Part shown: in pieces, positions 1,119 to 53,794 of the stretch
Position numbering within the stretch: position 1 is the stretch's first letter
Layout: each line of letters opens with the position of its first letter
Source of the DNA: Trichodelitschia bisporula
Taxonomy: Eukaryota
DNA length: 64,000 bases
Assembly (NCBI GenBank): GCA_010356995.1
Contig: ML996688.1
Span: 496,001 to 560,000, forward strand
Reading direction: 5' to 3'
Made by a program: the position numbers and the translations under genes
Notes under the pieces: model-generated
The model's input: the letters and a program-made list of their open reading frames with translations, nothing else
The model's database searches: none
What the model was told of the DNA's origin: nothing

Positions 1119-4100
1119 CTAACTGACATAAAACAACTTCATCACACTCAGAACCCTCTTCCGACACACCGGGCACTGATCCATCCGCTTCGCACACCCC
1201 AGGCACGCAACCACATGCCCACAGTCATAGAACGCCGCCTCAGCCCCCTCATCCCAGCAAATGCGGCAAAGCCGCTCCGTCTCCTGCGCCACCTTCCACG
1301 TCGTCACGCCCTCGCCATGGCGCTTATCATGCCGCCAACCCCCCTCGTACTTATTCCCCGTTGACGCCTCCACGTACTGCCCCTGCCCATGCTGCATCCC
1401 GCGCTCCCACGTCCCCTCGTATACATCCCCATTCGCATACACCATCACACCGTCGCCCTGCCGCTCGCCCAACACAAACGACCCGCGGTAGCTATTCCCA
1501 TTGTGATACACGCGGTGCCCGATGCCGTGCGCCTGCCGCGCAACCATGTCGCCCTCGTACCGCTCCGTGCTGAAGTAATCGAGGATGAAGCGGCCGGAGC
1601 ACCAATTTGGGAAGTTGCGCAGATCGCTGCGCGCGCGCAGGAAGTGTGTGATGTCGGTGTGGAGGCCGCGCTCGCGGAGCTCGTTGGCGATTTCGTCTGG
1701 CATCTGTGGCTGGACGATGATAATGGCTCCACAACGCAGTTCCTCGTCGGCGAAGGTCTTGCGACGACGCAGCGAGTGGGCTGCGTCCGTGGCGTTTTCC
1801 TCCCACAGCTGGAGGGCTGTGTCCTTGCCGGAGGAGAGCAACTTGTTTACGGTGTGGTCGATGCGGGCCGATTTCCTCGCCATGTAGGTGCCCTTGTGCA
1901 CCAGCTGTTGGGTCGCGGGTTTGAAGACCTTGAGGAAGAAGATGATATCCTCAGCGCGGGCGGGAATAGCGGCTGGTGGCGGCGGCGGCGGGATTGAGAG
2001 GTCCAGCTGTGGCGGCGAAGGGATGAAGCCGCCTAGGGTTGGGACGGGCATCGGAGGGATAGGAGGGGGGATCATTGTGGGAGGAACGTCCTCAACGGCA
2101 GCCGGCTCCTGCAGGGGAGTGGGAACCTCCACTGGCGTTGGAGTCTCAGTGACACCACCCATCTCAGTGTCGACGGGTGCGGGAACCGGTGGGATGCCGT
2201 CCTGTACTGGAACCGGTGGGATGCTGTCCTGTACTGGAACCGGATCTTCAGCACCAGTCATGGGTACGTCCTCCCCAGGCGGAGGCGCCGGAGGTGTGGC
2301 AGCCACCGGCGGGGGATCCAAGGCTGGAGGTGGAGCAGGCGGCAGCACCTGCATGGGGGGCGGAGGAATCATCGGGGGAGGCGGGGGCGGGAGATCCGCC
2401 TCGTCGAGAACGTATAGCATCAAGCGGTTGAAGCCATGCAATACCAACTCACCAGCCGTAACTTGCACGTCCACGTAGGCGGGCGTGAACGGAGTGAATG
2501 ATGGGAACAAGAAGTTGCCAGTCTTCTTCTCAAGTATGAGAACGCAGCGCCGCGGCTTAGAGATACCGCGCGCCTTGGCAATATGGTCGCGAATCTCCAA
2601 GCGTTGGGCGTCGGCTGGGACAGTGATGTTGAAGACGTGGGGCGAGGAAGCCCACTTCGGATCGTAGTAATCGATCAATCCCGGGCCCTCGTGCTCCTTG
2701 AAGGCGCGCGGGTCAATGACCTGGAGCTCTACGGGGCCCTTGTGCTGCTTGATCTGACTCTCGTAGTAGGCTCCAAAAATAGAGTGGAATAATGGAATGT
2801 CGCTGTCGCTCATCTTGGCGAACTTTTCCACAATCCACTCCGGAACATCCCACACCGGCTCAGATTCATTATCAAACGCATGTTCAGCGATGTCATCGCG
2901 GATATACGAGACAACGTATGCCACCGGAGCCGTTTCCACCATCGGTTTCCCAGGTGCAATCCCCTCGTGGGCCTCGATAGCCTGGCTCTTTGTGAGACAC
3001 ACGACTTGATTATCGTCTCTGCCGTTCTTGAAAGTATACCACTTGGATCGAGGACCATTGGGACGTAGAACTGAGTTGTAGACACCGGATTGCAGGTTGT
3101 CCTTGTGCACAATGAACCCGTAGAGCGTGTACCAGGTGTCTTTGAGCTGGATGTGATCATCGAGCTTCAACATGTCCGCAAGCTTCTTCCATGACCGCGC
3201 CTTTTCATCGAACTGCTGACGTTCGAGCTCGATTTGAAGCACGTGCGGCAGTTCGTGAGTTGAATCCACCAGATCTTGCGCCTTCTCAACCGCCTGCTGA
3301 ACCGATTCGCAACCACGAACGGGCGCCTTGTATGACGGCTTGTTGACTGTGCGGTCCTTGGCCGGCCCAAAGAGCTCATTGAGGCGATTTGCAAGCGGGG
3401 TGTCTTGCAGCTCCTGCTCGAGCTTTGCGCGTAGCACCTCCCAGACCTCGATGACGTCCATCTTGTCGATATGCTTGTCAATTCCGTACCACTCAAAGGC
3501 CTCGAAGATGTCATCGAGGGGCACCGTGGTCTTTGTGTCAAAGTCCGATGGCTGGCGCATGCCGTATATGATCTTTTGGAAGGCTGCGAGCAGGGGCTTG
3601 GGCTTGGTGCGCCGATCACGGACCCGGTCCGGTGCAACAGCCTCGTAGAGCAGCTGACGGAATGGCTTGAGCAGCATCCACGTCGACACAGCGGAGACTA
3701 GGTTGCCCCCAGACTGAGGGCGCAGGTCACTCGTCAGGCCGCGCAGGCCAGTCATCGCAAGGCAATTCCACGGATTCTCACGGCTAGGATGCTCCCAAAG
3801 ACAGTTGGTATCATCCTCGACGACGCGAATGTAGCTTGTAAACGCGAGAGTGTCGTTACGGAGCAGCGCCATCAGCTGGCCGCGATGCCGGTGCTGGATC
3901 TCGTAGTAAGGCCCATGGAAGCGCGTCCAGCCCCAGTCGGGAGAGTTTTCGCAGAAGCGATGCAGACAGGTGCGGTAGTGGCCGACACGCGGCTCGAGGG
4001 GATTGTACAGAATGACTGACACTTGAGCAGCAACGCTGCGCCGCTTCGGAACGGGCACCCCGTTGATCATGGGAATCGGGGTGTGTTGATACTCCACCGG

Positions 4101-48852: not shown

Positions 48853-50138
48853 GAACGATGATCAGTATGCGCAATCCGCCGCTAGTGCGGAAGAAAGAGG
48901 TGGGGGGGAGAAGGAAGAGTTGCTTGGGTGGGTGAAAGAATGAGTTATTCGCGGTTTCCCGGTCGCACTCGAGGTAGTCGAGGGCGCAACGCGGGTTCGC
49001 AAGCGCTGGTTGCCGGAGGAAATACAAACATCTCCTTGCACAACATATGTAACTCGAGGGGCGTTTGGGTAGTGTCAGCGCCCACGCGATCTCATTTGTA
49101 GGGATAAGGCTATCCCACCGACTTACTTACATCATCCCGTTCTGGCTGGGCCCCTGATGCGACCTCACCAATCAGGGGTTGCCACCACCTGGTGTGCAGA
49201 GACAACGGCGGTCTGTGATACGCGAAAGTTTTCTTTGACCATCTGTACCCTTCCCAAGTAACGTAAGGAGACGCTGATTTCATTGGTGACTCTGTCGGAA
49301 TGAAGGAACCAAGTGCTTCGAACTGCCTAATTCGAGGGGCTGTGCAGAGCCTTCAGTGCTGTCACCCGTCTGACTAGCCTCCCTGCTCCGCGCGCAACTC
49401 TCTCCAAAAAACTGTTTTGTCGATCAGCTGCGTCTAAATTTGGTGTTACGGCTACGCCGGTGCTGCTGTCGCTATCCAGGCTCATTCTCGTGCACATATG
49501 CACCACGTACGCAGATGCTGCGCACGTAGAACATGCTCTCGATGAACGCTCGTACTTGCTGATTATGCTCTTGCTGGCTGATCGTAATTACCACAGTTTC
49601 TTGGATCAATAAATGCACTCGGTTTGGCTTGGAAGCCACAGGCGGCACAGTGATTGGGGGCTGCGCAGGCATCCCGCACCATCTCTTGGTGGGGGTGAGA
49701 ATGTTCGTATGCACCCAGCCGAGATAGAGTACTTAGGTATGGCACAGTGCTCGCATTGCATTCGGTAATCTTAATCTTGAGCAGTCTGAGATTTTGGACG
49801 AAGGCTGCTAGTTCTAGAGCATGTTGTGTTTAAGCGTGTTGTGCTGATGCATGTTGTCCGGAGGTGATGTGGATAGTAATCGCCGGTTGAGTGTCGCTCT
49901 GGTTCCGGCACATCCGTCATATAGAGGCCTCTAGCAGCTGCGAATTCATACGAGGAGGCAAAGATGAGCTCAGAGGTGGAGGTTCAGATGACATGAAGTT
50001 CCCCGCAGGAAGGTGGTGGTGACGGAAAGAGGCTAGCGCAGTTTAGCGAAGCCTTGGCTCCCACACCCAAATTGGTGACAACAACTCCGACTCACGAACA
50101 CCGCAACACCACTGTCGACAACCCACCCCACCGCCACC

Positions 50139-50855
50139 ATGAGGACCTACGACGACACCTTCAGCGGGCAGAAGATCTACCCTGGCAAGGTATACCGTTC
50201 CCACTCTCGCTGAATATAGCCGCTGTCGAGCGCGGCGCTGGCAAATATTGGCACACAATGCTAACGTCACCGCGCAACCACAGGGCAAGCTGTACGTCCG
50301 TGGGGACAGCAAGATCTTCCGCTTCCAGAATGGCAAGACCGAGAGCTTGTTTCTCCAGCGCAAAAACCCGCGTCGCATTGCCTGGACGACGCTGTACCGG
50401 CGGCAGCACAAGAAGGGTCTGACGGAGGTTAGTGTCATCATTTCCATCCTGCGGAGCATCTATCTAGCGGAATGACTGCTGCCGGCTCTTCATAACAAGT
50501 CCCGGCATCACCGCCTCCGCGTGCCGCAATGCAATGCCATATCCGACCACCTCTGACAACCACGCAGGAAGTCGCCAAGAAGCGTACGCGCCGCACTGTC
50601 AAGCACCAGCGCGCCATCGTCGGTGCATCCCTCGACGTCATTAAGGAGCGCCGCTCCATGCGCCCCGAGGCTCGCGCCGCCGCTCGCCAGGCTGCCATCA
50701 AGGAGTCCAAGGACAAGAAGGCCGCTCTCGAGAGCAAGAAGAAGGCGGAGAAGGCTAAGACGGCATCGTCGGCTGCCAAGGGCCAGGCTCAGCGGATTCA
50801 GAGCAAGCAGGGTGCGAAGGGTGCGGCGCCGAAGGTGCAAGCGCGGACTCGTTAA
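50139..50855 (+). CDS. RPL24: 60S ribosomal protein L24 (eL24; 160 aa, 3 exons)
   Basis: Exons 50139-50189, 50284-50427, 50568-50855; introns of 94 and 140 nt. MRTYDDTFSGQKIYPGK|GKLYVRGDSKIFRFQNGK...NPRRIAWT.LYRRQHKKG. Start context GCCACCATG. Confidence 0.97.
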
Positions 50856-51757
50856 GGGACTGGCCTGGCATCTGGTGGATTCGGCGTTGTGCTTCTTTTT
50901 CAGTTACTGGAGCATGTCTCGTGAAGTCCGCCTGTGGGTCGTGCTCCCGGGCGTGGGAGTTATGACCATGGACGTCATGAAAACGTAGAAAATGGGACAA
51001 CTTGTCACGGCCCGCTATATCGCGTCTGTAGGCAGTGTGTGTCGTACTTGAGATGTCCATCTCTACGGCTGGATTGCTAATGACCAAGCCAACCTGACGA
51101 TGCCTTTGATCCATTTGGGACATGTGACACATGCCTAGTATCGCCGCATCAACGATCTGAACACTCCCGAGAATCAGAACTGTGCCATATGAAGCCTAGC
51201 CTCAACTTAGCGGTGATGTACAACTGCCCGACTCATGAAGTCTCTACCCCGCCTCATGTAGAGAGGCCATTAAGGTCCCGTGCATGCATGATACTACTCC
51301 GATGTCACCATGCATCCCCGTCGATTGACAGACAGCAACGACACTGGCCAAAAGAGCTGCGGGGTCTGCGGTTCGACGGGCTTGGCGGGAGTTGTCAGGC
51401 ATTGCGGCAAAGCCTACCCCTGGTCGGCAAAGATCGGATTCCACGAGCACTTAAAACCCTTCGAAAAATCCTATCGCAACTCCCAAACAATGTCGTTGCT
51501 CTCCTTCCCCACCTCTGGCCCCGTTGCCACCACGTATACGTTTCCCAGAAATAATTTCGCTTTTCACCTAACCAATGTCTTGCCACCGCCTCTAGCCATT
51601 GCCTCCCTGTCATCCCGTCACTATCCGGCATTGTTAAGCATCCTGCCATCGGCAACATCTGTTCGATATCCGTTTTGTTGAAGCCTATCAGATCCCGGTG
51701 AGATTTTTTGAAAGAAACAGAGTAAGTTTAAGTCCTGCAAACCTCCATGAGCACTCC

Positions 51758-51835
51758 TCTCTATGATGAATACCACCTTTTTTTAGATGTTAGACTTCCG
51801 AGCTCAAAGCTGCGGAGAAAACCCATTCTGATCAC
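51758..51835 (+). ncRNA. snR58: Box C/D snoRNA, snR58-like (predicted guide for LSU rRNA Cm663, yeast numbering)
   Basis: Box C ATGATGA 51763-51769; guide TAGATGTTAGACT(T) 51784-51797, antisense to LSU rRNA GAGUCUAACAUCUA (recalled sequence); D' CCGA 51798-51801; short AGCT/AGCT stem; C'-like TGCGGA 51811-51816; box D CTGA 51828-51831. Ends are approximate. Confidence 0.82.
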
Positions 51836-51930
51836 GTTTTTGCCCCACCCCATTATGTATTGTTTTTCAGTGTTCCTCTCGCTGATAGGTCTCGACAGGA
51901 AAAGGTTGATTGATACTTAAGGTTAACGCC

Positions 51931-53794
51931 ATGTGTGGAATCATTGCGGTTATCCACGCCGATACGGCCACTCCAGCTGCGGTCGAGATCCATGATGCGC
52001 TGTACCTCCTCCAGCACCGTGGGCAAGATGCTTGCGGTATCGCCACCAGCGGAGCTGGTGGTAGAATATACCAGTGCAAGGGAAACGGTATGGCATCCAA
52101 GGTTTTCCACGACGGCTCTCGCGTTGCCGATCTCCCCGGATTCATGGGCCTCGGTCATTTGAGATACCCGACCGCGGGGAGCAGCAATAACTCCGAAGCT
52201 CAGCCGTTCTACGTCAATAGTCCGTATGGCATCTGCTTCACGCATAACGGCAACTTGATCAACGCCCCGGAGCTTCGCCGGTTTCTGGACAAGGAGGCTC
52301 ATCGCCATATCAATACCGACAGCGACAGCGAGCTCATGCTGAATATCTTTGCCAACGAACTCAATGAAACCGGCAAGGCCCGTGTGAATGCAAGCGATTG
52401 CTTTGCCGCTCTCGGGCGAATGTACAAGCGTTGCGTGGGTGGTTGGGCATGTACCGCCATGCTTGCCGGTAAGCGATATTGCAGCTGAGGTTGATCGGAT
52501 ATCCACTAACCCGTTCAGGGTTTGGGCTTATCGGCTTCCGTGATGCATACGGCATCCGTCCCATGGTTCTCGGCTCGAAGCCTTCCGAAACCGGAGCAGG
52601 AACTGACTACATGATGGCATCCGAGTCCGTGGCCTTGGTTCAGTGTGGCTACAAAACCTTTGTCGACATCTTGCCTGGCCAGGCCGTGATTATCGAGAAG
52701 GGAAAGGAGCCGGTGTTTCAGCAAGTTCACCCGCAGCTTGCGTACTCCCCGGATATCTTTGAATACGTGTACTTTGCTCGTCCGGACACTATTATTGACG
52801 GCATCGACGTTGACGAAGCTCGCCGCAACATGGGGTTCAAACTGGCAGAGACCATTGAAAAAGAGCTCGGTCCGGAATTGCTTGCTGACATCGATGTGGT
52901 TATGCCCATTCCTGAGACCAGCATCACGAGCGCCCAATGCGTTGCCCGGGCACTCAACAAGGAGCACGTGCAAGGCTTCGTCAAGAACCGGTATATATTC
53001 CGGACGTTCATCATGCCGAACCAGAAGGCACGTCAGAAGGGTGTACGGGCTAAGCTCAATGCTATGCCGAAGAAGTTTGCTGGGAAGAATGTCCTTCTCG
53101 TGGACGACAGTATCGTGCGGGGTACCACCAGCCGGGAAATCGTTCAAATGGCCCGGGAGGCCGGTGCTAAGAAGGTCATTTTCACGAGTTGTGCGCCGCC
53201 GATCACGTAAGTCTCATGTTCTGAATCTCCGGGGTGGTGCTGACGGTTGCTAGAAATGCCCATATCTATGGCATTGACCTTGCCTCCAGCTCGGAGTTGA
53301 TTGCGCATCACCGGTCGTCCAACGACATTGCCAAGGTCATTGGCGCTGATGCTGTCATCTATCAGACGTTGACTGATTTGGAGGAGGCCTGTCTTTCACT
53401 GGTTAACACACCGGCTGGTCCAACGCGCTTCGAAGTCGGTGTCTTCTGTGGGAAATATGTCACGCCAGTGGATGATGCCTACTTCCAGCACCTGGAGCAG
53501 ATCCGAGGTGCGCGCAAGAAGGCCAAGGTGGTAGAGCAAGCGCGGAGTGCGGTTGTCCATGGCACTGCCGGGGATAAGGAGCTTACGATCGCGCTGAACG
53601 GGTGCGATGTCGACAACCTGGGCAATGTGGTGCCGGCCGAGAATGGCAACGGGGTCGTGGCTCCTCTGACCAACGGACATTCGGCGGTCATTGACGCTGA
53701 TGAAGAGAAGAAGCTGGACGGGGACAAGCAGGTCCGGGTGAGGGAGTGTCAAGACATCAGCCTGCACAACTTCAACGATCATCCCACCAACTGA
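51931..53794 (+). CDS. ADE4: Amidophosphoribosyltransferase (PurF; ~588 aa, 3 coding exons)
   Basis: Exons 51931-52468, 52519-53206, 53254-53794; introns of 50 and 47 nt. N-terminal nucleophile [41 protein letters not shown] loop [19 protein letters not shown]. Confidence 0.97.

Follow-up and report, generated by a model that had tools for sequence, protein, structure and literature searches.

Guide RNAs for one cytidine of the large-subunit (LSU) rRNA are on record for yeast, plants, and humans. In yeast the residue is 25S Cm663, which a review table assigns to the snoRNA snR58 (PMC5699541). The homologous LSU cytidine is listed as Cm1327 of human 28S rRNA and as Cm674 of plants, and the guides given for it in that listing are plant snoR58Y, human U104, and snR58 (PMC3511168). 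Human SNORD104 (U104, Rfam RF00289) and Arabidopsis snoR58Y, which belong with snR58 to clan CL00077, are likened to the RNA described below by this table listing. Within the fungi, a survey of the snoRNAome treats snR58 as the computational family CD_68, which it traces through fungi, and reports Sordariomycetes without CD_68 (PMC5824354). The term ‘host gene’ is absent from the main text of that survey, whose supplements may list family members and their positions. In Neurospora crassa, 45 of 55 box C/D snoRNAs are intronic, mostly at 41–60 nt from the 5′ splice site, and their processing is sensitive to the spacing from the 3′ splice site (PMC2780460). The Neurospora study contains 0 mentions of an snR58 homologue or of an amidophosphoribosyltransferase host. 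Hosting of snR58, or of any snoRNA, by the amidophosphoribosyltransferase gene ADE4, or the conservation of such hosting, was not found in the literature, judged in part by titles and abstracts; supplements or genome annotations may hold it. The snR58 family is already known in fungi; its conserved ADE4 host is apparently undescribed.

Here we describe an snR58-type RNA in the 5′ leader of ADE4. We refer to the whole 64-kb (64,000 nt) stretch of DNA that was analysed as the window; it is Dothideomycete by protein identity, and so falls inside the reported range of CD_68. S. cerevisiae snR58 (RF01199) and the window copy share the C box, the guide core, the guide-to-D′ register, and a single guide at D′. 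The D′ box of the window copy, however, is CCGA, its guide has U in place of C at one position, and its RF01199 score is 17.5 bits, where the gathering score is 70. The S. cerevisiae gene is intergenic and longer (96 nt are matched in the baker’s-yeast-like relative L020), whereas the window RNA is intronic and about 75 nt long. We consider it highly probable that the ADE4 leader intron gives rise to a genuine snoRNA of the snR58 type.

Boxes, guide, and predicted rRNA target

A full C/guide/D′/C′/D layout had been claimed by a sequence-only reading of this DNA, and each of its elements is directly visible in the letters of the forward strand:

51759–51835 (+), box C/D snoRNA of the snR58/U104 type, ends approximate (Rfam snR58 alignment 51759–51833; match of our own model 51760–51830; metagenome homologues)
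51763–51769 (+), C box AUGAUGA (sequence reading; invariant in 17 of 17 aligned homologues, though part of the search pattern)
51784–51797 (+), guide (antisense element) UAGAUGUUAGACUU, 14 nt, abutting D′ (sequence reading; aligned to the snR58 guide)
51798–51801 (+), D′ box CCGA, degenerate (sequence reading, snR58 alignment, homologue alignment)
51802–51810 (+), short D′–C′ hairpin spacer of 9 nt, AGCU-CAA-AGCU with the neighbouring A and U (centroid fold)
51811–51816 (+), C′-like box UGCGGA (sequence reading; homologue comparison)
51828–51831 (+), D box CUGA (sequence reading; CUGA at least 22 nt past D′ in 20 of 20 distinct homologues)

From the first base of the C box to the last of the D box the RNA measures 69 nt, within the 60–120 nt expected of box C/D RNAs, whose boxes read RUGAUGA near the 5′ end and CUGA near the 3′ end. 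A U-rich spacer lies 3′ of the C box. Yeasts and Pezizomycetes have CUGA as D′, in contrast to the CCGA of the window copy. In a centroid fold of the intron, the D′–C′ hairpin is the sole structure retained inside the snoRNA. Relatives carry AGAA/UUCU, GUGC/GCAC or GCGC/GCGC at this position; the arms vary by lineage, and the hairpin is common to the relatives though it lay outside the pattern used to find them. The C′-like element was likewise absent from that pattern, and reads CUGCGGA in six of the seven ADE4-hosted sequences and CUGCAGA in the remaining one. Intronic snoRNAs without a terminal stem exist. In the window copy, no terminal stem joins the C and D boxes: the flanking bases are non-complementary and the fold contains no terminal helix. 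Such a stem is present in relatives L007, L013, L014, and L009 (GGU/ACC or CUAC/GUAG). As a whole, the leader intron folds no better than its shuffles (z +1.1).

The combination of C box, 5–30 nt, guide, and D′ has a single occurrence in the 64-kb window, and none of 100 dinucleotide shuffles contains it. Moreover, a sequence model built from 17 metagenome homologues, with the window excluded, has a single match in the window, at 51760–51830 (43 bits, E ∼1e-12); there is some circularity in this test, since the homologues had been found with a pattern derived from the window.

An Rfam scan of the whole 64-kb window at gathering thresholds returned 0 matches. In a permissive search of 51600–51960 the best match was RF01199 (snR58) at 51759–51833, with an E of 2.5 for its 17.5 bits, and the C box, guide, and D′ were aligned to the model at high posterior probability. 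Matches to snR61, SNORD18, and Afu_294 were weaker and are supported by boxes alone. As cmscan reports the best match per clan, U104 (RF00289) has no score of its own. The low score of the window copy is explained by the narrowness of the RF01199 model, whose gathering score is reached by just one of 15 related fungal loci tested. That locus is the baker’s-yeast-like L020 (116 bits), which was caught by the same pattern and matches the window in guide-to-D′ register. To judge from these loci, RF01199 is specific to close relatives of baker’s yeast. It misses the whole filamentous-fungal branch of the snR58 family, and routine Rfam annotation will therefore leave the family unlabelled in filamentous fungi as well as in many yeasts. 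The snR58-like identity put forward in the sequence-only reading agrees with both the best Rfam match, in which guide and D′ align, and the register shared with L020.

The window guide lies in the same register as the snR58 guide; the one position at which they differ has U where snR58 has C and still allows pairing (G-U or A-U). The window guide is complementary to the LSU rRNA motif GAGUCUAACAUCUA, its 14 positions giving 13 Watson-Crick pairs and one G-U. Under the D′+5 rule, the methylated nucleotide pairs with the fifth base before D′. That base is G51793, as the sequence-only reading had said, and it would face the C corresponding to yeast 25S C663. The predicted target under this rule is thus the C of GAGUC, equivalent to yeast 25S C663. 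The complement of the guide is contained in a primer that is reported to fit LSU rRNA across many fungi (PMC4024029).

A second guide before the D box was considered and dropped, as the stretch in question differs in every lineage. Because the sequence 5′ of the D box is unconserved, we regard the RNA as a single-guide RNA, in which the stretch before the D box probably guides nothing.

Splicing of the ADE4 leader intron

The snoRNA lies between the coding regions of RPL24 and ADE4, which are on the same strand:

50139–50855 (+), RPL24 gene, upstream of ADE4; transcript to about 51098–51113 (open frames, contigs)
50188–50281 (94 nt) and 50426–50565 (140 nt) (+), the two spliced introns of RPL24 (contig joints)
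51494–51721 (+), ADE4 exon 1, all 5′ untranslated (contigs; 5′ limit set by the longest contig and not by start mapping)
51722–51898 (+), ADE4 leader intron, 177 nt, donor GTAAGT, branch CTGAT (A at 51885), acceptor CAG (contig joint, geometry)
51899–51930 (+), leader part of ADE4 exon 2, 32 nt (sequence, contigs)
51931–53794 (+), ADE4 coding region, exons 51931–52467, 52518–53206, and 53254–53794, stop included (contig joints, translation)

The three coding exons translate to 588 aa, and TIGR01134 purF (NCBIfam) is the best family for coding exon 1 (137 bits) and coding exon 2 (209 bits). Over its full length, the 588-aa product is 100% identical to the protein that NCBI names amidophosphoribosyltransferase in the Dothideomycete Trichodelitschia bisporula; both the name and the taxon were assigned by comparing it locally with the proteins retrieved for the other loci.

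Transcript contigs assembled from two runs, both of the same sample and study and with RNA as the guessed run type, were aligned to 50000–53400. They skip five GT..AG intervals, namely those of 94 and 140 nt in RPL24, 50 and 47 nt in the ADE4 coding region, and 177 nt in the ADE4 leader. As five canonical introns of the genomic window are missing from them, the contigs are spliced-transcript assemblies. The 177-nt leader interval is removed at a joint between 51721 and 51899, which is found in one contig of each run. Both contigs (2176 and 2174 nt) cover exon 1 up to 51721, starting at 51494 or 51508, resume at 51899, and extend across the coding exons, with zero mismatches. They also remove both ADE4 coding introns, and other contigs remove both RPL24 introns. 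An upstream exon is thus joined to the exon with the ADE4 start codon, and the snoRNA therefore lies in the ADE4 5′ leader intron; splicing into the ADE4 transcript is directly observed, and the snoRNA is situated wholly inside a spliced sense-strand intron. No contig covers the leader intron itself, which has no bearing on the small RNA. RNA ends are not visible in the contigs, and a minor ADE4 start within or past the leader intron would be compatible with them.

An ADE4 leader intron was a central claim of the sequence-only reading, and the joint in contigs that run into the coding exons bears it out, including the junction ending at 51898 that had been named as one of its checks. Two donors had been offered. 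GTAAGT at 51722 is the one used, whereas the alternative GTGAGA at 51698 is absent from the contigs and was rejected. An ADE4 start downstream of 51835, which would have made the snoRNA a separate unit, is contradicted by the contig starts at 51494 and 51508. The intron had further been described as three to four times the usual size, which holds against the ADE4 coding introns and less well against those of RPL24.

Within the intron, the C box lies 41 nt from the donor. GCTGAT starts at 51881, CAG ends at 51898, and the ADE4 ATG is at 51931. From the end of box D it is 54 nt to the branch A, close to the ∼50 nt claimed beforehand, and 67 nt to the 3′ splice site, which is inside a 50–100 nt placement range; the corresponding distance is 70–101 nt in six relatives. 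Hirose and Steitz reportedly described, in 2001, an optimum distance of an intronic snoRNA to the 3′ splice site. The distances in the window, 41 nt on the 5′ side and 67 nt on the 3′ side, are like those of Neurospora intronic snoRNAs, and the latter would fit the importance reported for this spacing in intronic processing (PMC2780460).

Conservation of the snoRNA in ADE4 leaders

A scan of metagenome contigs for the exact pattern taken from the window (C box, 5–30 nt, guide, D′) identified 25 loci with 20 distinct sequences. All loci have a D box, and the predicted RNAs are about 67–90 nt long. By tblastn with the window ADE4, the gene is downstream of the snoRNA at eight of the 25 loci (L006, L009, L018, L019, L021, L007, L014, and L023), where it begins 90–210 nt past box D; at a ninth locus (L013), the contig ends 16 nt after a matching ATG. 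The eight loci include one that is Pezizaceae-like (L023, 90% protein identity to Peziza echinospora), one that is Helotiales-like (L007, 94% to Hyaloscypha), one with a protein nearest to Leotiomycete proteins (L014), and a lineage without a close named relative (L009 and L019, best identity 70%). Conservation of the placement in distant Pezizomycotina is thus directly seen: the search for the same RNA in ADE4 leaders across this group, which had been suggested from the sequence alone, is answered by these eight loci and L013, all of them on metagenome contigs placed by protein identity. Read from these sequences, the ADE4 host is old, being common to Dothideomycete, Leotiomycete-like, Pezizaceae-like, and one unplaced lineage.

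Seven distinct ADE4-hosted sequences, the window included, were compared for intron geometry. All seven have a GTnAGT donor 41–73 nt before the C box and a branch-like CTRAY followed by AG 67–101 nt after box D, giving predicted introns of 177–250 nt. Mean pairwise identity in this comparison reaches 0.66 in the snoRNA but only 0.28 and 0.31 in the flanking intron sequence on either side.

This contrast bears on the possibility that the element is a decaying or chance box C/D look-alike, devoid of function. Such a reading can draw on the degenerate D′ and C′ boxes, the absent terminal stem, and the sub-threshold Rfam score of the window copy. Yet the same degenerate CCGA and CUGCGGA are common to the Leotiomycete-like and unplaced lineages while the flanks around them have been randomised, and the shuffled sequences never produced the pattern. 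We regard a functionless look-alike as extremely improbable.

The same geometry speaks to whether the RNA is instead an independent transcription unit, with a promoter of its own within or beside the ADE4 leader, rather than a product of the spliced intron. The snR58 copies of budding yeasts are intergenic, and the contigs, which do not show RNA starts, leave room for such a unit. Against it, the 41 nt between donor and C box are too short for a promoter and are unconserved (identity 0.28). In addition, in every one of the seven ADE4-hosted sequences the spacing of donor, branch, and acceptor is that typical of intron-processed snoRNAs, and similar distances are found among the mostly intronic box C/D snoRNAs of Neurospora (PMC2780460). 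An independent unit is therefore very unlikely, and an snR58-type snoRNA derived from the spliced ADE4 leader intron remains our preferred reading.

On this reading the RNA is orthologous to yeast snR58, human U104, and plant snoR58Y and is transcribed within the ADE4 pre-mRNA. Its further course is suggested by established intronic box C/D biology. Snu13, Nop56, Nop58, and fibrillarin/Nop1 would assemble on the intronic C/D motif, and the spliced intron would be debranched and exonuclease-trimmed to a particle of roughly 75–80 nt. The D′ guide would then pair with LSU rRNA, and fibrillarin would methylate the 2′-OH of the C opposite G51793.

Other hosts and the question of purine coupling

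ADE4 is not the sole host of the family. Five further loci (L003, L004, L015, L011, and L025) carry the snoRNA in CDS1, the gene for phosphatidate cytidylyltransferase (PF01148), where it is flanked by two exons of the same strand and occupies one conserved protein position. Its coordinates in these loci are about 3001–3045, or 1994–2038 in L015. The nearest relatives of the CDS1 proteins are in Tricharina for L003 and L015 and in Trichophaea for L004, and the L011 protein is 100% identical to Tuber borchii CDS1. Three more loci (L005, L012, and L022), outside the CDS1 host scan, are near-identical to this group in the snoRNA and its flanks. The CDS1-hosted RNA of these Pyronemataceae-like and Tuber-like fungi has the same boxes and guide as the window copy and is intronic too. 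It differs in occupying an internal coding-region intron of another gene, in its CUGA D′ box, and in a longer D′–C′ hairpin. Because the Peziza-like L023 carries the RNA in the ADE4 leader and the Pyronemataceae-like and Tuber-like loci carry it in CDS1, a host switch within Pezizomycetes is indicated; in the Pyronemataceae/Tuber lineage, an intron of CDS1 took the place of the ADE4 host.

In budding-yeast-like loci (L008, L010, L016, L020, and L024), the snoRNA lies between genes, and the neighbouring genes are long and intronless. At L001, L017, and L002, it is flanked by a gene for a DEAD-box helicase and a NUDIX gene. In the yeast-like L001/L017 and L002, TACTAAC and then AG follow shortly past box D, a sequence arrangement which suggests that the snoRNA may be intronic there too.

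The variety of hosts weighs on the proposal, put forward in the sequence-only reading as a coupling of purine supply to ribosome biogenesis, that hosting by ADE4 is adaptive. Here, carriage of a Cm663 guide in the mRNA for the committed step of purine synthesis would tie snoRNA output, or splicing of the leader, to purine demand and thereby couple nucleotide supply to ribosome making. In its favour, the ADE4 placement is kept in at least four distant Pezizomycotina lineages, longer than neutral intron drift might suggest. However, dependence of a snoRNA on its intron is enough to fix that intron, coupling or not. The same snoRNA also sits in the phospholipid-synthesis gene CDS1 of Pyronemataceae-like and Tuber-like fungi, and is intergenic in budding yeasts. 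The RPL24 neighbour that the sequence-only reading had cited in support of coupling fares no better: tblastn found RPL24 in 0 of the 25 related loci, with the full 3 kb upstream present in only six of the ADE4-hosted ones, and we reject RPL24 adjacency as part of the unit. We therefore judge adaptive hosting to be unlikely. Equally doubtful in our view is the historical form of the proposal, in which the Cm663 guide was already housed in the ADE4 leader intron before the Pezizomycotina split into classes and was kept there because snoRNP assembly or a shared promoter links the first purine enzyme to ribosome production. If this were true, the ADE4 leader would be a regulatory unit of a metabolic gene and a snoRNA, not a frozen accident. 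Because of the CDS1 and intergenic contexts and the unconserved RPL24 adjacency, we favour a historical accident fixed by the intron dependence of the snoRNA, and find no evidence of a regulatory purpose in the choice of ADE4 as host.

As a historical accident, the ADE4 case is a neat but fairly ordinary intron-borne snoRNA whose placement is kept in several distant filamentous-fungal classes, and it opens no new mechanism. It adds a verified snR58-type guide for a Dothideomycete, and the snoRNA accounts for the length and retention of the ADE4 leader intron. The host relationship is the more useful part: with the ADE4 leader in four lineages, CDS1 in another, and intergenic copies in budding yeasts, the family offers a clean and datable case of host switching. 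Fungal annotators could use a homologue-based model to label the RNA and to correct 5′ UTR models of ADE4.

Some minor features of the region may be recorded. The 140-nt RPL24 intron contains no C/D box pair discernible by eye. The RPL24 contigs end at 51113 and 51098, the latter continuing into sequencing-adaptor letters. The ADE4 leader exon holds an upstream open frame of six codons at 51575–51595 (+); its ATG is the only one visible in exon 1 past the beginning of the contig. Finally, a palindrome, CATGTG-A-CACATG, at 51119–51133 (+), about 370 nt upstream of the first transcribed ADE4 base seen, may be a promoter element.
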